From a virus (lineage: Duplodnaviria > Heunggongvirae > Uroviricota > Caudoviricetes): 8,233 bases of DNA. The translations under genes were made by a program, and so were the position numbers. The notes beneath the pieces were generated by a model that saw only the letters and a program-made list of their open reading frames with translations, was not told where the DNA came from and did no database searches. This document shows positions 259-6,552 of this stretch, one piece after another; positions within the stretch are counted from its first letter, which is position 1; each line of letters starts with the position of its first letter. The stretch lies in the IMG/VR virus record IMGVR_UViG_2548876858_000010, positions 1 to 8,233 of that record; one strand, written 5' to 3'.

Positions 259-458
259 AAATAAAGGGATAACGATGATAGTTTGAGAAAAACAGAAATA
301 ACACTTTTGTTGCAGCGCATGGTGCCGGGTGCCTCCCGGTGAATTCAGCCGGTGTCACTGAACCCGCGTCGGCTTGCCTATAACATAATAAATGCTACCT
401 ACACCAGTCGCCCCTCCGCACAGGGGGATTCACCATGCAGTAGTGTTTTTAATAAACA

Positions 459-489
459 GCAAATAAAAAAATCAAGCATTATTTATGCT
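459..489 (-). terminator. Weak AT-rich hairpin plus U-tract at the end of the TerB/small-membrane operon
   Basis: Minus strand: AGCAU-AAAUA-AUGCU followed by UGAUUUUUUUAUUU. The stem is only 5 bp and AT-rich and overlaps the last codons of the 55-aa ORF. Confidence 0.3.
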
Positions 490-1068: not shown

Positions 1069-1237
1069 CGTGACGTTCCTTTGGGTGGGTGAGCCAACGC
1101 CCGGGAGCGATCTGCCCACAGAGAAAGTCACACTGACCACTCCATAAGCTCCCCCCGAAAGGCTCTGTGGTTGGTATGCGCCGGGCGTGGTGCGGATACA
1201 AAAAAGGTCCGCAAAAGCGAGCGAGGGAAAATAAGTG

Positions 1238-1314
1238 TGGTGCGTTGTACTGGGTTCGAACCAGTGACCGATTGCTTAGAAGGCAATTGCTCTGTCCGGC
1301 TGAGCTAACAACGC
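1238..1314 (-). tRNA. argO: tRNA-Arg, anticodon TCT (77 nt)
   Basis: Manual cloverleaf: GCGTTGT/ACAACGC acceptor, GCTC/GAGC D-stem, anticodon loop CTTCTAA, ACTGG-TTCGAAC-CCAGT T-arm, 3' ACCA encoded. Symbol is by analogy with the Stx-phage ileZ-argN-argO triplet and is not verified. Confidence 0.85.
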
Positions 1315-1327
1315 AGAATACCGATAA

Positions 1328-1404
1328 TGGACCGCCATCGGAGACTCGAACCCCGCGAAACCAGCTTCGAAGGCTGGCGTTCTATCCCGATGAGCTAATG
1401 GCGG
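1328..1404 (-). tRNA. argN: tRNA-Arg, anticodon TCG (77 nt); one D-stem mismatch and discriminator U
   Basis: Manual cloverleaf: CCGCCAT/ATGGCGG acceptor, anticodon stem CCAGC/GCTGG with loop CTTCGAA, T-loop TTCGAGT, 3' TCCA. D-stem GCTC/GAAC has one mismatch. Symbol by analogy only. Confidence 0.75.
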
Positions 1405-1405
1405 T

Positions 1406-1481
1406 TGGTGGCCCTTGCTGGATTTGAACCAGCGACCTGGCGATTATGAGTCGCTCGCTCTCACCACTGAGCTAAAGGGCC
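1406..1481 (-). tRNA. ileZ: tRNA with CAT anticodon, ileX-like (probable lysidine tRNA-Ile2; elongator Met not excluded)
   Basis: GGCCCTT…AAGGGCC acceptor, anticodon loop CTCATAA, T-loop TTCAAAT, CCA encoded. Close to the E. coli ileX sequence from memory. Separated by 1 nt from the next tRNA. Confidence 0.85.
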
Positions 1482-1521
1482 GGGAGCAGAATAATAACGG
1501 TGCATAATTAATTCTTCAATA

Positions 1522-2580
1522 TCATCCGTTCTGGCTGACTAAATCCTGTACTTCCCGAACCGTCTGCTCAAAACGTTCAGTCTCCAGTTCAACACCAGTT
1601 GCACGACGTCCCAGCGCCATCGCTGCTTTGACTGTCGAACCCGACCCCATGAAGAAATCTGCAACCAGGTCTCCCGGACGACTGCTTGCGCTGATTATCT
1701 GCTGCAACATTTCTGCCGGTTTTTCGCACGGATGTTTCCCGGGATAGTAATGCATCGGTTTATGCGTCCACACATCGGTGTACGGCACCTGCACCGTCAC
1801 ACCGAAATACCGCCGCAGATGCTTATATTCACTCTGCAGTTCCGTATACTGCCGGTTCAGTTCACTGTATGTGCTGACCAGCTGGTGGTGTGGCTTTTCC
1901 AGTTCACAGCGTTGATGTTTTTCTGCTGCAACACGCGCAAACAACGCCTGTAATTTCAGATAATCGCCTTCGTTCGGCAACTGCCACTGACTGATACCAA
2001 ACCAGTGCGAAACCATGTTTTTCTTTCCGGTGGCTTCCGCTATCTGTTTTGACGTTATTCCCAGTGATTTACGCGCATCACGAAAGTAAGAAATCAGCGG
2101 GGCCATGACGTGCTGTTTTAGCTCGCGCCCCTTTGCCGCATAGCCGTCATTTTTGGGCTGGTATGGCCCCTGATAATGTTCTGCAAACAGAATGCGTTCT
2201 GTTGCCGGGAAATACGCCCGCAGGCTTTCCTTGTTGCATCCGTTCCAGCGTCCGGACGGCTTCGCCCAGATAATATGGTTCAGCACACTGAAGCGTTCAC
2301 GCATCATGATTTCGATATCAGATGCCAGGCGATGACCACAGAACAGGTAAAGACTTCCGGCAGGTTTCAGCACCCGCCAGAACTGCGCCAGACACTGGTC
2401 CAGCCACTTCAGGTAATCATCGTCGCCCTTCCACTGGTTATCCCAGCCCTCAGGCTTCACTTTAAAGTACGGCGGGTCCGTGACTATCAGGTCAACAGAA
2501 TTTTCGGGTAACGACCGGATAAATTCCAGGCAGTCGGCGTTGATTAACTCACAACTGGATATTTTTACAGTATTAAGCAT
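1522..2580 (-). CDS. Orphan DNA methyltransferase, beta-class (likely N6-adenine; N4-cytosine not excluded), 352 aa
   Basis: Track ORF. Catalytic DPPY motif near the N-terminus (LIVTDPPYF) and AdoMet motif FFMGSGST near the C-terminus, the order typical of beta-class amino-MTases. No adjacent restriction endonuclease ORF. Confidence 0.9.
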   Translation of the reverse strand: MLNTVKISSCELINADCLEFIRSLPENSVDLIVTDPPYFKVKPEGWDNQWKGDDDYLKWLDQCLAQFWRVLKPAGSLYLFCGHRLASDIEIMMRERFSVLNHIIWAKPSGRWNGCNKESLRAYFPATERILFAEHYQGPYQPKNDGYAAKGRELKQHVMAPLISYFRDARKSLGITSKQIAEATGKKNMVSHWFGISQWQLPNEGDYLKLQALFARVAAEKHQRCELEKPHHQLVSTYSELNRQYTELQSEYKHLRRYFGVTVQVPYTDVWTHKPMHYYPGKHPCEKPAEMLQQIISASSRPGDLVADFFMGSGSTVKAAMALGRRATGVELETERFEQTVREVQDLVSQNG

Positions 2581-2672
2581 GGATCATTAAGCCTGTCTCT
2601 GATAGGCTCATTCTGCTTTTGCGCAAAGCAGTGGGCCTGAGGTTTGCTTGTGAACCCAACGCATGAGCAGAT

Positions 2673-2703
2673 GGCTGGTGGGTGCCCCTAACACCCACCA
2701 GCC
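2673..2703 (-). promoter_or_regulatory. Perfect 12-bp inverted repeat with 7-nt loop in the methyltransferase leader
   Basis: ggctggtgggtg-cccctaa-cacccaccagcc read directly. No U-tract follows on either strand, so it is not an intrinsic terminator. Further hairpins at about 2613-2631 and 2590-2606. Confidence 0.35.
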
Positions 2704-2716
2704 GCCCATTTACCAC

Positions 2717-2744
2717 AAATAAAAAAGCCTTCACTGCGGAAGGC
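2717..2744 (-). terminator. Rho-independent terminator at the 3' end of the small HTH-like ORF
   Basis: Minus strand GCCUUC-cgcagu-GAAGGC followed by UUUUUUAUUU. The stem includes the stop codon. Confidence 0.5.
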
Positions 2745-2928
2745 GTCTGTAACAACCGAACTGATAGTCTGCCAGACCCGCCATAACCAGCTGGGTCAGT
2801 ATTAACTGGCAGCGTTCGCGTGAAAGGTAAGTATTCTGTGCAATCTCCCCGACTGTCGCCGGTTCGGTAACGCTTAATTCATTAAACACTACTCTGGCGG
2901 TTTCTGTCATATCCTGCTGTTTTAGCAT
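2731..2928 (-). CDS. Small protein (65 aa) with a helix-turn-helix-like segment; possible DNA-binding regulator
   Basis: Internal ATG at 2928 preceded by AAGGGAAAAAGAC; the longer track ORF (to 3015) would run into the pR'/tR' region. Sequence MLKQQDMTETARVVFNELSVTEPATVGEIAQNTYLSRERCQLILTQLVMAGLADYQFGCYRRLPQ. Function is inferred. Confidence 0.5.
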   Translation of the reverse strand: MLKQQDMTETARVVFNELSVTEPATVGEIAQNTYLSRERCQLILTQLVMAGLADYQFGCYRRLPQ

Positions 2929-3048
2929 GTCTTTTTCCCTTTTCCGGTTAACGTGACACACCAATAACTCTTGTCGAAAAAGCCAGCAAGCTGAAAGACA
3001 GGTATTCACCGCCACCAGCGCGTTTACTGTACTGACGCGATTTCAGTC

Positions 3049-3072
3049 ATAAAAAACCCGCCAGGCGGCGGG
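3049..3072 (-). terminator. tR'-like intrinsic terminator downstream of the late promoter
   Basis: Minus strand CCCGCC-gccu-GGCGGG followed by UUUUUUAU, about 60 nt downstream of the predicted pR' start. Confidence 0.6.
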
Positions 3073-3121
3073 GTGTAAAAAATCTTCTAACGTCAGGCAT
3101 AAAACGCCCATCGTTAGAGCA

Positions 3122-3149
3122 AATTTACCACAGATTCGGGAAAAATCAA
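3122..3149 (-). promoter_or_regulatory. pR'-like late promoter with Q-utilisation region
   Basis: Minus strand TTGATT-(16 nt)-TAAATT then TGCTCTAACGATGGG, resembling lambda pR' (TTGACT-N17-TAAATT-TGACTCAACGATGGG) as recalled. Lies immediately downstream of the Q stop. Confidence 0.55.
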
Positions 3150-3154
3150 CAACA

Positions 3155-3976
3155 CTATCGCGTTACCCTCTTTAACTGCCGCTCCGCCCATGCCTCTTCA
3201 ATGTCAAACCGAACCACCAACGTATCGTAAAAGCGTTTCACTGATTTTTTCCACGTATCAAGCGTGATAGCACTCGTCACTTTGCATATGGCATTAAATG
3301 CCTCCGTTGATGGCAGCCTTTCACAGCCACGACCACCACAACGCTGGCAATCTCTGATAACAGGCATACCACGTTTTACCGACTCTTCACGATGAATGGC
3401 GACACCACGCCCACGGCAATCCTTACAGGCGGTGGAAACCTCACCCTTTCCGCCACACTCCGGACAGGCAACTTTTACCACCTCCCTGACTTTTTTCCAT
3501 TCTTCCCAGTAAGACGGATACACGCCTTTTGTGCACTTTGCCCACACTGGTGGCTTACCATCCGGATACTGGATCTTGTTTGTAAAAACCTCGCTTTCAA
3601 TAAATTTTTTTCCGTGACAGCAGGGGCACTGTTTTTTGCTCGCCGCGCTACGGGCATAATCTTCAAACGCATACGAAGCCATAATGCGCATCACTACCGG
3701 TTTTATTTCTGCCGGAAGTTTTCTCAACGCCGCCACACGATCGCACCGACTGAGTGCATAATCTGCCAGTAATTCTGTTGCCCGCGCCCTGTCATTCATA
3801 CTGATGCCCATTTTCCCCAGGAACGCAGAAAACCCCATCTCAGCCCGATTCTGTGTCATGCCCTGCGCGGCCATCACATCAGTGATACTCAGCGCATCTT
3901 TTGACGTTGAGGCCGATGCATCGGTCAGGCCAGGGGATTTTGGGGAGTAGTATTTCGGTAAATCTTCCAGTTTCAT
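3155..3976 (-). CDS. Q-family late-gene antitermination protein (273 aa) with DnaJ-like CxxCxGxG zinc-finger repeats
   Basis: Track ORF. ATG overlaps the rusA stop (ATGA). Motifs CPECGGKG, CKDCRGRG, CQRCGGRG plus CPCCHGKK. Directly upstream of pR'/tR'. Size and position resemble Qin quuQ-type Q proteins (recalled). Confidence 0.8.
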   Translation of the reverse strand: MKLEDLPKYYSPKSPGLTDASASTSKDALSITDVMAAQGMTQNRAEMGFSAFLGKMGISMNDRARATELLADYALSRCDRVAALRKLPAEIKPVVMRIMASYAFEDYARSAASKKQCPCCHGKKFIESEVFTNKIQYPDGKPPVWAKCTKGVYPSYWEEWKKVREVVKVACPECGGKGEVSTACKDCRGRGVAIHREESVKRGMPVIRDCQRCGGRGCERLPSTEAFNAICKVTSAITLDTWKKSVKRFYDTLVVRFDIEEAWAERQLKRVTR

Positions 3977-4347
3977 TTTTTGACCTGCCCTTCAAGCATT
4001 ATGGGGTAAATCTTCACCCCCAGACGTCCACCAGATACTGGCTGACCACGAACGATATTGATTTCATCAAACTGCTCATCGTCCATTAACACTCCCGCAT
4101 GCGTCAGCGCATCCAGCGGTGCTTTCAGGATATTGTCCAGGTCGCGACGACGCTTATCCGGTGGCTCTGCAATCACCTTTATCGCCAGCCTTCCGGACAG
4201 GCTTAATTTCAGCCGCTGCTGGCGAACAATAAGCGCCACAGCCCGGCGATAACGCTTTCCCTCCTCCGAGATAAAATATGTGCTGCCACGGCGTCGCCAG
4301 TAAGTGTTCACCGTCGGCGGGTAAGGTAAAACCAAATCTATGAGCAT
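3973..4347 (-). CDS. rusA: RusA Holliday-junction resolvase (124 aa)
   Basis: Track ORF MLIDLVLPYPPTVNTYWRRRG…DKRRRDLDNILKAPLDALTHAGVLMDDEQF… matches the RusA family signature. Strong SD AAGAGGTGA upstream. Confidence 0.9.
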   Translation of the reverse strand: MLIDLVLPYPPTVNTYWRRRGSTYFISEEGKRYRRAVALIVRQQRLKLSLSGRLAIKVIAEPPDKRRRDLDNILKAPLDALTHAGVLMDDEQFDEINIVRGQPVSGGRLGVKIYPIMLEGQVKK

Positions 4348-4359
4348 CAGTCACCTCTT

Positions 4360-5406
4360 TTACCCAAGCACGCCAGTTGCAAAGGCGTGATCAAGAAAAC
4401 GAAAAATTAAATCAACCTGAGAACCATGCTTTTCTTCGAACGCCAGAGGATCCGCATGAAGCTCGTTGTGATGCTCCCGACACAGCGGTAGCGTGAAAAT
4501 ATCGTGAGATTTTGTCCCCATTCCGCCCTGACCATGACCAATCAGGTGATGGGGATCGTCGGCTGGCTTACCACAACACGCACACGGCTGTGTCTTCACC
4601 CAGCGTGTGTATTTCTCGTTAACCCAGCGGCGACGTTTAGGTCGTTTCATGAAAGATTCCGGAGACTCAGGATCAACGGCAATGCTGACCACCGTCTCTT
4701 CCTGTGGCGGGTTTTGCTGGTGGGCGTGAGGCAGCGGCGCAAGATTTTTTGTGCGCTGCTTCAGTATGCTGGTGGCGGTCTGCTCTCCCGGTACGATGTC
4801 GCTTTCACGGTACATTGAGCGGATTTTTTCCGCACGCAACCCCAGCGAACGACGTAATACCGCTTCCGGTAGCGCGTCCGCCACCTGATTGCGGACCGCC
4901 CACCAGGATAATTCAGCCAGCGATAATTCCCGTTCCTGCGAGCCATTCATTGCATGGAGTATGACGTCAATCATCCATGCAGACAGGTTTTGGTGAGCAA
5001 GTTGCCCGAGTGATTCGGAGGTCTGGTCGCGCAGCTGGTTGTCGCAGTGCCAGCACAACACCATTGCGCCGGTACCATAACGGTGAATGACGGTTTCACT
5101 GTGGTGATAATCGCCGTGTGGCCACTGGCAGGATTTAACATGGCGCAGTAACCAGTCAGACAATGCGCCAGCGCCACCAGCAGCACGAATCACTCGTTCG
5201 TCGCTGAAAAATGGCAGTAATGATTTATCCTCCGCCAGCGGCTGGCGAACGGCAGGAACGACCCCGGACGACAGATTACGCATGCTTTTCGGTTCCGGCT
5301 CCACCAGTACCCGGGTATTGTGGAATACCGGCATGGATTCACAGCCCGGCTTAACGATCACCAGCCCGAGTTCCGGTACCAGAACAGGTCGAAGTAATAC
5401 CCGCAC
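4360..5406 (-). CDS. ydfU: DUF968/YdfU-like prophage protein with C-terminal HNH-like Cys/His motif (348 aa)
   Basis: Track ORF. GTG start at 5406 preceded by GGAGG-N4; alternative ATG at 5334. C-terminus CACCGKPADDPHHLIGHG…LCREHHNELH. Symbol by synteny with Qin (hokD-rem-ydfU-quuQ) and similar length, recalled not verified. Confidence 0.75.
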   Translation of the reverse strand: MRVLLRPVLVPELGLVIVKPGCESMPVFHNTRVLVEPEPKSMRNLSSGVVPAVRQPLAEDKSLLPFFSDERVIRAAGGAGALSDWLLRHVKSCQWPHGDYHHSETVIHRYGTGAMVLCWHCDNQLRDQTSESLGQLAHQNLSAWMIDVILHAMNGSQERELSLAELSWWAVRNQVADALPEAVLRRSLGLRAEKIRSMYRESDIVPGEQTATSILKQRTKNLAPLPHAHQQNPPQEETVVSIAVDPESPESFMKRPKRRRWVNEKYTRWVKTQPCACCGKPADDPHHLIGHGQGGMGTKSHDIFTLPLCREHHNELHADPLAFEEKHGSQVDLIFRFLDHAFATGVLG

Positions 5407-6122: not shown

Positions 6123-6150
6123 AATAAAAACAAAAACCCGCCGAAGCGGG
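6123..6150 (-). terminator. Rho-independent terminator of the hok transcript
   Basis: Minus strand CCCGC-UUCG-GCGGG followed by UUUUUGUUUUUAUUUU. Confidence 0.6.
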
Positions 6151-6220
6151 TTAAGTGCGGGTGCGTTGAGGATGCCTGACACATCAGAGGTGGCGAGGGA
6201 TTTCTCCCCCGCCTGGTCTC

Positions 6221-6376
6221 TTACTCCTCAGGTTCGTAAGCTGTGAAGACAGCGACCTCCGTCTGGCCGGTTCGGATTCGTACCTCGCAGAGGTCTTTCC
6301 TCGTTACCAGTGCCGTCACTATGACGGTTAAACAGATGACGATCAGGGCGATTAACATCGCCTTTTGCTGCTTCAT
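6221..6376 (-). CDS. hok: Hok-family type I toxin (51 aa)
   Basis: Manual translation MKQQKAMLIALIVICLTVIVTALVTRKDLCEVRIRTGQTEVAVFTAYEPEE, matching the HokD/RelF sequence as I recall it. Missing from the ORF track because it is under 60 aa. Confidence 0.92.
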   Translation of the reverse strand: MKQQKAMLIALIVICLTVIVTALVTRKDLCEVRIRTGQTEVAVFTAYEPEE

Positions 6377-6432
6377 AGCCTGCTTCTCCTTGACCTTTCG
6401 GTCCGTAAGAGGCTAATCTCTATGTGTCGCAT
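6373..6432 (-). CDS. mok: mok-like leader reading frame (19 codons) ending in TGA overlapping the hok ATG
   Basis: ATG at 6432 with GAGG 8 nt upstream; MRHIEISLLRTERSRRSRL. Start region aligns with the R1 mok start (cuAUG…GAUAGCCUCUUAC) from memory. Shorter than R1 mok. Confidence 0.45.
   Translation of the reverse strand: MRHIEISLLRTERSRRSRL
6390..6419 (+). promoter_or_regulatory. Sok promoter candidate (TTGACC-N18-TAATCT), antisense to the hok/mok translation-initiation region
   Basis: Hexamers read on the plus strand in the position equivalent to the R1 Sok promoter. Confidence 0.45.
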
Positions 6433-6495
6433 AGATATGGCCTCAGATTAATGTTAAGCGTCTTGCAGGACGCGTAATGTTAACTGGGGCTTTTC
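6426..6495 (+). ncRNA. sok: Sok-like antisense RNA (approximate extent; 3' end not resolved)
   Basis: Inferred from the promoter at 6390-6419 and complementarity to the hok mRNA leader. Contains hairpin GCGTC-ttgcag-GACGC; I could not identify a clean terminator. Confidence 0.35.
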
Positions 6496-6552
6496 TCTAT
6501 CTGCCTTTTGGTGTTCATGCCTGAGACAGATAGCCTCAAGCACCCGCAGTCA

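Follow-up and report, generated by a model that had tools for sequence, protein, structure and literature searches.

The mRNA of the DNA methyltransferase encoded in the analyzed stretch of Caudoviricetes DNA (8,233 nucleotides in length, here called the window) carries a structured, covarying leader RNA that is absent from Rfam. This RNA is the new result of the present analysis; the enzyme itself, a relative of M.EcoGII by sequence, is no novelty. The minus strand of the window contains, in this order, a Q gene, a pR′-like promoter, terminators, a 65-aa ORF, a further terminator, the leader, the methyltransferase gene and three tRNA genes. The methyltransferase, the small ORF, its terminator and the leader had been pointed out in a first-pass annotation, and all four parts were recovered at their minus-strand coordinates. 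The best overall explanation for this locus, which we favor with moderate confidence, is that of a late-regulatory region of a lambdoid prophage with a three-part cassette (65-aa gene, leader, and enzyme), in which a Q-dependent late transcript would encode an M.EcoGII-type enzyme and the leader would serve as a translational gate. The features of the locus are as follows:

3155–3976, minus strand: Q antiterminator of the phage-82 type, 273 aa, with DnaJ-like zinc-finger repeats (PF03589, E = 2e-49; phrog_127)
3122–3149, minus strand: predicted pR′-like late promoter, TTGATT (3149–3144), 16-nt spacer and TGgTAAATT (-10 at 3127–3122), read by eye
3049–3121, minus strand: tR′ equivalent, two intrinsic-terminator-like hairpins (3121–3105 and 3072–3057) and a T run (terminator scan)
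2953–2990, minus strand: conserved non-coding block of CTTGCTG, 17 nt, TAnnTG and TGTCAC, candidate promoter/operator of the 65-aa gene (conservation)
2731–2928, minus strand: 65-aa stand-alone winged-helix protein, phrog_331, database name TrmB family regulator (ORF, homologs, AlphaFold)
2719–2744, minus strand: terminator hairpin GCCTTCCGCAGTGAAGGC (2744–2727) with T run, overlapping the stop codon of the 65-aa ORF (terminator scan)
2581–2730, minus strand: leader between the 65-aa ORF and the methyltransferase gene, 150 nt (position)
2581–2718, minus strand: conserved structured leader RNA of the methyltransferase mRNA (covariance model R1, 149.7 bits and E = 1e-33 for the window)
1522–2580, minus strand: M.EcoGII-family N6-adenine methyltransferase, 352 aa, ATG without Shine-Dalgarno sequence (PF01555, identity to M.EcoGII)
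1238–1481, minus strand: tRNA genes ileZ-type (CAT), argN (TCG), and argO (TCT) (ARAGORN and Rfam)

The assumption that the leader is structured was borne out by its MFE of -63.4 kcal/mol (z = -3.64), a stability equaled by 1 of 200 shuffles, and by strong covariation. The spacer measures 134–153 nt in 35 loci from at least 15 genera, ranging from Escherichia to Plesiomonas, and its nucleotide conservation persists despite saturated synonymous sites in the flanking gene. Neither the window nor the loci from Salmonella, Proteus, and Plesiomonas gave a hit with E ≤ 1 when the leader strand was searched against Rfam 15, including all riboswitch classes. The known prophage sRNAs AgvB, AsxR, and Pas were rejected as candidates, since they belong to different loci. 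The following elements were delineated within the leader:

2663–2709, minus strand: extended hairpin consisting of HB1 (AUGGGC, 2709–2704, with GCUCAU, 2668–2663) and HA (2703–2692 with 2684–2673) (covariation)
2581–2656, minus strand: helix HE (2656–2646 with 2592–2581), enclosing HD (2637–2631 with 2611–2605) and hairpin HC (2630–2625 with 2619–2614) (covariation)
2643–2671, minus strand: alternative hairpin P3 (2671–2662 with 2652–2643), mutually exclusive with HB1 and HE (covariation, moderate support)

Fold I, predicted to comprise the long hairpin of HB1 and HA followed by a second domain, was paired in 95.6% of cells in 64 enteric sequences compared to 28–45% in slid controls. Among 86 distinct sequences including N15-like types, the corresponding values were 92.5% and 30–45%, with double changes in 30 of 40 pairs. 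Covariation in these 86 sequences reached 0.323 as opposed to 0.035–0.092 in slid controls and 0.149 in shuffles (reached by 0 of 500), with the qualification that the strongest covariation figures stem from alignments which were fitted, and are thereby biased, toward fold I by the covariance model, and that shuffle controls overstate significance for phylogenetically related sequences such as these. An alignment produced with MAFFT only was still 93% paired (controls, 30–45%). RNAalifold on MAFFT alignments of the divergent types misaligned the hairpins, making a covariance model necessary, and clade effects drowned the signal when all columns were compared with each other for covariation. 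At the level of single helices, compensatory changes were present in 10 of 12 pairs of HA (95% of cells paired) and, for the 86 sequences, in 10 of 10 HE and 6 of 6 HC pairs. HB1 was 98.6% paired, its changes being nearly all one-sided with the pair kept. The G-U pairs of this extended hairpin are workable on the minus strand only. Two further helices were less informative: P1 (UGGGC with GCCCA) was 100% paired and nearly invariant, its lone double change (locus L033) being equally explained by improvements of HB1 and HD, and the variation of P0 (UGUGR with UCACA) was uninformative. A leader peptide was rejected, as the invariant AUG (GUG in a few cases) opens ORFs of 4–45 codons with unrelated sequences. 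A promoter within the leader, suggested by a conserved, extended -10-like TGTGRAAAT preceding AUGGGC, was rejected as well, because its hexamer is inconsistent between clades and because a transcription start at this site would delete one strand of the well-supported HB1.

The cassette was also found in Stx phages, SfV, phiP27, N15, phiKO2, and VHML. Using the covariance model, exactly one copy of the leader was located directly upstream of the methyltransferase gene in 53 of 69 divergent loci, and the leader was likewise found in SfV, phiKO2, VHML, N15, and phiP27. It was missing from the other 16 loci and from phiO18P, showing that members of the enzyme family can do without the RNA. Of 232 leaders, 214 are flanked by both genes, a co-occurrence observed directly, with most exceptions being contig ends. 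Seven enteric loci with sufficient upstream room contain leader and methyltransferase gene and no 65-aa gene, and for VHML, L244, L245, L289, L298, L300, and other leader-bearing loci neither the 65-aa profile nor tblastn with gp51 revealed an upstream homolog. Comparison of gp51 from N15 and phiKO2 with the 65-aa family (hhalign probability 92.7%, E = 4e-7) suggests that it is a probable remote homolog; it is encoded at a distance. A role of N15 gp51 as the phage Q was rejected, since Q of the telomere phages is located in immB (PMC4488713). The expectation that the 65-aa ORF would be conserved upstream of homologous methyltransferase genes thus holds for the leader loci of Enterobacterales, but not for the seven loci with room, nor for the N15-like phages with their remote and distantly located homolog. 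The leader, not the 65-aa ORF, is the most faithful companion of the enzyme.

The position of the second domain relative to the start codon bears on a possible function of the leader. The 3′ strand of HE (2592–2581) comprises the 12 nt just 5′ of the AUG, with this strand ending 2 nt short of it; a Shine-Dalgarno sequence in front of the methyltransferase start is absent. In the MFE structure of the window the AUG itself is paired, and the predicted pairing probability for positions -14 to +3 averages 0.58 in 79 sequences, indicating moderate predicted occlusion of the start region overall, which becomes weak (about 0.3) in N15-like types. Leader and start codon do not adjoin each other in seven divergent loci. 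The competing hairpin P3 showed a covariation of 0.145 compared to 0.072 in shuffles (reached by 0 of 500), a signal contributed largely by two or three columns. One P3 pair occurs as CG (28), UA (21), AU (11), and UG (6), and in column 87 of alignment A5 an A to G change is accompanied by U to C changes in both alternative partners. The energy difference between the two folds has a median of -1.7 kcal/mol. Since a helix pairs the 12 nt preceding a start without Shine-Dalgarno sequence and the competing hairpin covaries, these predictions suggest that the leader is probably a translational gate.

The methyltransferase matches PF01555 (N6_N4_Mtase) with 148.7 bits against a cut-off of 26.7, covering residues 29–340, with about 90 additional residues between the two Pfam halves. 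Its translation contains the catalytic DPPY (35–38) and the SAM-binding FFMGSG (309–314; FxGxG at 310–314), i.e., the beta-class order, and DPPY and FxGxG are invariant in an alignment of 14 homologs. An endonuclease gene was found neither next to it nor elsewhere in the window, and inspection of related loci revealed none either. The first-pass description as orphan beta-class methyltransferase is thereby confirmed for this prophage-borne enzyme. It shares 319 of 349 residues (about 91%) with M.EcoGII, the comparison sequence having been machine-read from the PDF of Table S1 in PMC11551740, and is 92% identical to the enzyme of phage 1720a-02, itself described as very similar to M.EcoGII (PMC5778455). 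With M.EcoGII/M.EcoGI from prophages of E. coli O104:H4 C227-11 (PMC5778455) the window enzyme has in common its prophage setting, a similar length (352 vs 349 aa) and the order of DPPY, target-recognition domain and FxGxG. It differs by about 30 substitutions, many of them within residues 140–260 of the target-recognition region, and the published account mentions neither a leader RNA nor a 65-aa gene (PMC5778455).

M.EcoGII methylates adenine non-specifically, is toxic and is silent in the lysogen (PMC5778455). In a second study, homologs with about 93% similarity were classed as non-specific, and the lysogen displayed only GATC and CTGCAG motifs, other methyltransferases being seemingly inactive (PMC6602927). 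By homology, the window enzyme would methylate adenine in any context, harm the cell and be silent in the lysogen. A methylome comparison of a lysogen with a cured strain, as proposed earlier for finding the target motif, would consequently be uninformative, since M.EcoGII-type enzymes are motif-less and silent in lysogens (PMC5778455; PMC6602927). The idea of a phage anti-restriction methylase raised in the first-pass annotation is in line with the role suggested by the authors who characterized the near-identical M.EcoGII (PMC5778455), and we infer the same function for the window enzyme.

The surroundings of the cassette follow the layout of a lambdoid Q-dependent late operon, with Q (PF03589), a promoter-like site, two terminators and, in the closest E. 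coli relative, late genes downstream, namely those for holin, lysozyme, and terminase. The pR′-like site scored 8/12, which is under the threshold of the promoter scan, and its position directly after Q agrees with SfV and with where late promoters are annotated in N15 and phiKO2. The annotated order in SfV is Q, terminator, orf47, methyltransferase, terminator, and holin; that in N15 and phiKO2 is late promoter, terminator, methyltransferase, terminator, and lysis or other late genes. Phages mEp460 and Evi, which carry the same Q, match the window only at 3049–3976, and the homology breakpoints at about 3050–3072 mark the tR′ region as the point where Q module and cassette are joined in mosaic fashion. 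Neighbors of the cassette include tRNAs, a TerB protein, Q, RusA, and DUF968. The tRNA genes were rejected as cassette members: none of 27 other loci scanned has tRNA genes downstream of the cassette (two have them upstream instead), this placement being confined to E. coli-type phages. As a predicted late promoter and two sets of terminators precede the methyltransferase gene, expression of the latter would be Q-dependent and lytic, and the earlier proposal of late expression downstream of pR′/tR′ is thus retained in the form of a dependence on antitermination implied by gene position.

According to the explanation favored here, synthesis of the methyltransferase mRNA would be restricted to lytic growth and to RNA polymerase that Q has modified and rendered terminator-resistant, and the enzyme would then hypermethylate progeny DNA as a protection against restriction; both steps are suggested by gene position together with the literature. 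Within fold I, the second domain may pair an internal segment (GGUUCAcAAGC here, AGGUCAcAAGC in the majority of relatives) with nucleotides upstream of the start and in this way mask the ribosome landing site. P3 would take up the same segment along with one strand of HB1, leaving the start region free. The leader might hence constitute a second lock on a toxic gene, with a logic like that of the translation-inhibiting stem of phage Mu mom, and candidate triggers for the switch would be the 65-aa winged-helix protein, autoregulation by the enzyme, a metabolite, or RNA processing. Common to Mu com-mom and the cassette are a toxic late DNA-modifying enzyme, a start region within an mRNA stem (predicted here), a small gene directly upstream and stacked controls. 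However, Mu Com is a zinc-finger protein and the com gene overlaps mom, whereas the 65-aa protein has a winged-helix fold and lacks a Cys4 motif, with a terminator and a 150-nt multi-helix RNA lying between its gene and that of the enzyme; sequence or structural homology is absent and the analogy is one of logic only. Similarly, mutually exclusive helices of which one sequesters the start region of a methyltransferase are known from erm-type attenuation and other bistable leaders, the differences to erm being that the present leader lacks a conserved leader peptide (variable uORFs of 4–45 codons), that the enzyme acts on DNA and that the cassette belongs to a phage late operon.

The 65-aa ORF is a genuine gene, as directly evident from 334 clusters of homologs across Enterobacterales and a dN/dS of 0.04–0.12 with saturated synonymous sites. 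Its description as HTH-like with its own terminator proved accurate: the AlphaFold model (pLDDT 90) shows three helices followed by a beta-hairpin, i.e., a winged helix, and the hairpin at 2744–2727 is followed by a T run. When profiles were compared, a C-protein or Xre identity found no support, with neither an Xre nor an HTH_3 match, and the winged-helix alternative was upheld by the AlphaFold model and by the sole hit, a weak match to Pfam TrmB (PF01978; 18 bits, under the gathering score of 25.6, E = 0.0026). The name "TrmB family" given in databases goes back to this weak similarity, and NCBIfam models gave no match to the protein, which has two cysteines and no Cys4 motif. In every genus, Escherichia through Plesiomonas, the block at 2953–2990 is conserved and keeps a constant distance to the ATG; it was not seen upstream of the leader in loci without the 65-aa gene. 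As a sigma-70 promoter it agrees at only about 6 of 12 positions, and a partial palindrome within it is lost between clades. Among 85 distinct loci, 51 have a terminator-like hairpin immediately before the leader, and such a hairpin is retained in enteric loci that lost the 65-aa gene. With conserved upstream block, ORF, and terminator, the 65-aa gene forms a unit of its own, and it genuinely accompanies leader and enzyme as a conserved partner.

This partnership raises the question of whether the 65-aa protein acts on the leader. It could be a trans-acting effector which, as in a Com/mom-like pair, binds the leader RNA or its DNA and switches translation. Such a function is conceivable, albeit doubtful, since the seven enteric loci retain leader and methyltransferase without the gene, many divergent leader-bearing loci such as VHML and L244 lack an upstream homolog, the fold is generic with DNA-binding regulators as best matches, and the gene with its own upstream block and terminator resembles an independently expressed unit.

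Alternatively, the 65-aa protein might serve the methyltransferase as subunit or as targeting factor, altering its substrate (phage vs host DNA, or RNA). Apart from the linkage of its gene to leader and enzyme, a precedent is provided by M.EcoPA8orf6770P of Stx phage PA8, which forms a 1:1 complex with the adjacently encoded small winged-HTH protein PNB-2 and then prefers 16S rRNA (PMC10810198). That enzyme, however, is of the MT-A70 family (DPPW, 208 aa), its 143-aa partner is encoded by an overlapping gene in the early region without a leader, and no homology is detectable between this pair and the window cassette (hhalign probability of 2.9% for PNB-2 against the 65-aa family). The Koudelka rRNA methyltransferase was accordingly rejected as a match, being an unrelated MT-A70 enzyme from the early region. 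Moreover, M.EcoGII by itself is fully active and non-specific in vitro (PMC5778455), and the terminator and 150-nt leader between the two genes (in N15 also a promoter) are unlike what is found for co-translated subunits. We consider a subunit function unlikely.

A metabolite riboswitch, responding for instance to SAM or SAH as cofactor and product of the enzyme, would account for two mutually exclusive, covarying folds of similar energy, for the many invariant unpaired positions (among them AAUGGGCG, UCAC, GCCCA, and the HA loop) and for a leader spread wider than any single protein partner. Against it stand the absence of any match among the riboswitch models of Rfam 15, those for SAM and SAH included, the lack of a usual terminator-type expression platform after the aptamer-like part and the lack of a pointer to any particular ligand; to our knowledge, riboswitches on phage late DNA-modification genes would also be unprecedented, so that this option appears quite unlikely. 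There is a similarly small chance that the leader is a bistable riboregulator set by the products of the cassette, with the winged-helix protein as RNA-binding or m6A-sensing effector, or with feedback of the methyltransferase on its own mRNA. In the latter variant the enzyme, which is known to methylate RNA, might methylate conserved adenines in the competing helices and so shift the fold.

If the leader were a stable non-coding RNA with its own function (a trans-acting sRNA, a processing or a decoy element) and not a gate, its frequent position directly after a terminator could mark it as a discrete unit, and the seven divergent loci in which it does not adjoin the start codon would find an explanation; prophage regions downstream of pR′ are also rich in sRNAs (PMC4104026). 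Yet leader and methyltransferase gene share a strand and directly adjoin one another in almost every locus, the leader has no terminator behind it, the bases immediately 5′ of the AUG belong to the helix with the most abundant covariation, and the conserved -10-like motif would start transcription within HB1, contradicting the pairing, which together make an independent RNA very unlikely. The earlier analogy to restriction-modification units, with the 65-aa protein timing methyltransferase transcription like a C protein, fared worst and is hardly credible: a small protein with a nucleic-acid-binding fold is indeed encoded just 5′ of the methyltransferase gene and preceded by a conserved non-coding block, but it is a winged helix in place of the Xre-type HTH of C proteins, no consistent palindromic C-box was recognized upstream of its gene, no endonuclease is present, and a terminator separates it from a methyltransferase gene lying within a Q-dependent late operon.

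M.EcoGII is a much-used reagent for chromatin and RNA footprinting and is common in Shiga-toxin phages, where it is located between Q and stx. We know of no explanation so far for how a lethal, non-specific enzyme of this kind is first silenced and then released, and the conserved, covarying leader turns this question into a testable one. The leader is a candidate for a new class of cis-regulatory RNA extending from Stx phages to N15 and the Vibrio phage VHML. The analysis also defines a family of small winged-helix proteins (phrog_331, N15 gp51), whose sole known property is that they travel with this RNA and the enzyme. As the leader lies on the late transcript upstream of stx in Stx phages, it may be speculated that its folding or processing could affect the toxin mRNA. 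Feedback of the methyltransferase on its own mRNA, if true, would represent an m6A-dependent RNA switch in a bacteriophage.

All genes of interest lie on the minus strand of the window, in the following order from 5′ to 3′:

6221-6545, minus strand: hok/sok-type toxin-antitoxin module (sok RNA at 6374-6545, 106.7 bits; 51-aa hok-like ORF at 6221-6376)
4360-5406, minus strand: DUF968 gene
3973-4347, minus strand: rusA
3155-3976, minus strand: Q antiterminator of the phage-82 type (PF03589, E = 2e-49)
Between Q and the 65-aa ORF, minus strand: spacer of 226 nt
2731-2928, minus strand: 65-aa ORF
Between the 65-aa ORF and the methyltransferase gene, minus strand: spacer of 150 nt, here called the leader
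1522-2580, minus strand: methyltransferase, 352 aa (PF01555, 148.7 bits)
1238-1481, minus strand: three tRNA genes
3′ of the tRNA genes, minus strand: TerB-family gene
284-464, minus strand, downstream of the TerB gene: STnc100 sRNA (full-length Rfam match, 117 bits against a gathering score of 47)

The nearest E. coli relative, 96% identical across this stretch, goes on with holin, lysozyme and terminase, and the region is the late-regulatory part of a lambdoid prophage. Positions 1200-3200 match 292 phage records, mostly Stx2 phages together with phiP27 and 1720a-02, as well as 3397 of 5426 complete E. coli genomes (median two places per genome, maximum 15). An isrK-like match of 24.9 bits, below threshold, lies beside the hok/sok module (6131-6212), and Q has CXXCXGXG zinc-finger repeats of the DnaJ type (PF00684, 28 bits, sub-threshold). 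The tRNA cluster, ileZ-argN-argO, is found 3′ of the cassette of small gene, leader and enzyme only in E. coli-type phages; L012 and L013, loci from two other genera, instead have a different cluster (Met-Thr-Gly) upstream of the 65-aa gene.

The first-pass annotation had placed the methyltransferase downstream of the late promoter pR′ and the late terminator tR′. Sequence inspection revealed a promoter-like site 3′ of Q (TTGATT, 16-nt spacer, TGgTAAATT; 3149-3122), followed by two terminator-like hairpins (3121-3105 and 3072-3057). Homology to mEp460 and Evi, which have the same Q and no cassette, covers 3049-3976, whereas homology to phages with the cassette but a different Q covers 2929-3072, so that the module junction is the terminator itself. 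These breakpoints support the late promoter and terminator reading. The same placement is found in the annotation of SfV (Q, terminator, orf47, methyltransferase, terminator, holin) and of N15 and phiKO2 (late promoter, terminator, methyltransferase, terminator, then lysis or other late genes).

The motifs of the methyltransferase follow the beta-class order (DPPY at residues 35-38, FxGxG at 310-314) and no endonuclease gene was found near it, in agreement with its initial description as an orphan beta-class enzyme. It is 92% identical to the enzyme of phage 1720a-02, which was called very similar to M.EcoGII (Murray et al., PMC5778455), and 319 of 349 residues are identical to M.EcoGII as listed in Table S1 of the SUPREM paper, a machine-read copy that may contain a few wrong letters. 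M.EcoGII methylates adenine whatever its context, on dsDNA, ssDNA and RNA; it is deleterious upon expression and unexpressed in the lysogen, and its authors suggested that it is switched on at prophage excision (PMC5778455). Homologues from O111 STEC (~93% similarity) are listed as non-specific, and the lysogen showed only GATC and CTGCAG motifs, the other methyltransferases appearing inactive (PMC6602927). Since enzymes of this type are non-specific and silent in the lysogen, a methylome comparison of a lysogen with a cured strain is expected to be blank, and such a result would leave the finding unrefuted. It is no new enzyme, and phage genomes have commonly shown this arrangement ever since phiP27 and N15 were sequenced.

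A genome scan seeded with the 65-aa protein yielded 34 loci from at least 15 genera. The methyltransferase lies directly 3′ of the small gene in 32 of them, the two exceptions being a contig end and a locus that has lost the enzyme gene. Spacer length is 134-153 nt in every scanned locus, though protein identity falls to 41% and 57%. A spacer profile over 237 sequences found exactly one copy in 232, flanked by both genes in 214, with the remainder mostly at contig ends. Conservation of the ORF upstream of homologous enzymes holds in these 214 loci and fails in seven loci where spacer and enzyme are kept and the small gene is replaced by other DNA. One locus (L019:5001-5285, Enterobacteriaceae bacterium MGYG-HGUT-00110) looks like a decaying copy, with a 5′-truncated or divergent 65-aa gene, a degenerate truncated leader and no methyltransferase. 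In a Providencia sp. (L025:5339-5476), the methyltransferase frame ends after 45 codons while tblastn matches run on, probably a pseudogene behind an intact leader.

The leader is, on comparative sequence grounds, a conserved structured RNA; that it is structured had been proposed from the sequence alone. Long spacer blocks are invariant across genera in which synonymous sites are saturated, the G-U pairs fit the mRNA-sense strand only, and the window's leader folds with -63.4 kcal/mol (z = -3.64). Compensatory changes are plain on inspection: the E. coli pair GGCUGGUGGGUG/CACCCACCAGCC is replaced by GACUGUAAAAGUG/CACCUUUACAGUC in Proteus and by GCUGCAGCAUG/CAUGCUGCAGC in N15-like phages. The main structure, fold I, and its competitor comprise:

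HB1, fold I: AUGGGC with GCUCAU
HA, fold I: apical hairpin
HE, fold I: AGGUCAcAAGC as consensus (GGUUCAcAAGC in the window) with GCUUnnUGAUCY, which stops 2 nt short of the AUG
HD and HC, fold I: helices inside HE
P3, alternative fold, minus strand: local hairpin of 2671-2662 with 2652-2643

Fold I pairs in 93.0% of cells in a MAFFT-only alignment of 64 sequences (slid controls 30-45%). After covariance-model realignment, which is fitted to fold I itself, the values were 95.6% for these 64 (28-45%) and 92.5% for 86 sequences including divergent loci (30-45%). In the latter set, 30 of 40 pairs show both-sided changes, the covarying pairs include all of HE, all of HC and 10 of 12 in HA, and covariation was 0.323, against 0.149 in shuffles (0/500) and 0.035-0.092 in slid controls; as the sequences are related to each other, covariation figures are not probabilities. 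Rfam 15 gave no match on the leader strand in the window or in the Salmonella, Proteus and Plesiomonas loci, and literature text searches turned up no account of an element of this kind.

P3 takes the 3′ strand of HB1 and the 5′ strand of HE and therefore excludes both helices. One of its pairs occurs as CG (28), UA (21), AU (11) and UG (6), and only the Proteus, Providencia and Plesiomonas types have its inner pairs. Together with P1, a UGGGC/GCCCA helix, P3 pairs in 81% (slid controls 18-50%), with a covariation of 0.145 against 0.072 in shuffles (0/500). At one shared position, an A-to-G change is accompanied by U-to-C in both alternative partners. In constrained folding the median difference between the two states was 1.7 kcal/mol, with fold I the stabler one in 50 of the 86 sequences. 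P3 is moderately supported; a two-state leader is what a switch would look like.

A second scan, with the Plesiomonas enzyme as seed, added 69 more diverse loci. In 53 of them (scores from 167 to 24 bits), the covariance model placed the leader directly 5′ of the methyltransferase; the remaining 16 have none, filters off included. Among named phages it scored 174.6 bits in SfV, 150.1 in phiP27, 71.3 in phiKO2 (precisely in the interval from the annotated late terminator to gp52), 51.7 in N15 (just 3′ of the annotated terminator) and 47.3 in Vibrio phage VHML. It is absent from phiO18P, a P2-like Aeromonas phage with the methyltransferase gene inside the lysis cassette. This distribution makes the RNA the enzyme's most faithful companion, though not a universal one. 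In N15 (L313, NC_001901.1, 2852-3230), the leader model puts the start codon at about 2996 and gene 52, the methyltransferase gene, is annotated from 3230; either this annotated start may be wrong or the 5′ part of the gene may be disrupted. In four cases (L251/L252, L258/L259, L261/L264, L270/L271), a single IMG/VR contig holds one N15-type locus twice, in inverted orientation, probably through fold-back assembly of hairpin-telomere phage genomes.

Several features point to a translational gate. No Shine-Dalgarno sequence is suitably spaced from the conserved CUGAUCYAUG, HE spans positions -14 to -3, and the methyltransferase AUG is also paired in the window's MFE structure. Ensemble pairing probability from -14 to +3 has a mean of 0.58 and a median of 0.63 (only ~0.3 in N15-like types), and the invariant upstream AUG opens no conserved reading frame, but 4-45 codons encoding unrelated peptides.

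The 65-aa ORF is a real gene, with a dN/dS of 0.04-0.12 against relatives (synonymous sites saturated). Its homologues fall into 334 clusters, from genera that include Escherichia, Shigella, Salmonella, Klebsiella and Citrobacter; the family is small and narrow, an exhaustive profile search of 1.84 billion proteins returning just 86 representatives. It belongs to phrog_331, a family of unassigned function, and the Pfam TrmB match behind its database name reaches 18 bits, below the threshold of 25.6. The AlphaFold model (pLDDT 90) predicts three helices and a beta hairpin, a winged helix, which is silent on DNA or RNA as the ligand. The first-pass annotation's HTH-like protein with its own terminator thus stands, and of the two identities it had offered for a profile search the winged helix is favoured; the protein is no Xre-type controller, and the analogy to controller-protein and methyltransferase units is not supported. 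Upstream, a non-coding block at 2990-2953 on the minus strand (CTTGCTG, 17 nt, TAnnTG, then TGTCAC) keeps a fixed distance from the ATG in all genera from Escherichia to Plesiomonas; a poor sigma-70 match (about 6/12), it may act as promoter, operator or 5′-UTR element. With its own block and terminator, the gene has the look of an autonomous unit lying between tR′ and the leader.

N15-like phages carry gp51 (75 aa, winged helix; L308:1503-1730 in phiKO2, L313:2501-2728 in N15), which is separated from the leader, some 125-175 nt further 3′, by the late promoter and terminator. Profile-profile comparison with the 65-aa family (hhalign probability 92.7%, E = 4e-7, 48 columns) makes gp51 a probable remote homologue. 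By analogy with Com, the small activator of phage Mu mom, the 65-aa protein is a candidate effector of the leader. It is also a candidate enzyme partner resembling PNB-2, which serves the MT-A70 enzyme of phage PA8, unrelated to the M.EcoGII type (PMC10810198). A regulator without relation to the enzyme is the third candidate. That the trio is seen again in a phage type of a very different kind speaks for a functional link.

Two locks would then act in series: methyltransferase mRNA would require Q-dependent read-through of two terminator sets, and the leader RNA would gate translation of the toxic enzyme. The leader is the part worth attention, being strongly conserved, covarying and without a description found, and attached to a famous enzyme of unexplained silencing; a small winged-helix family travels with it.
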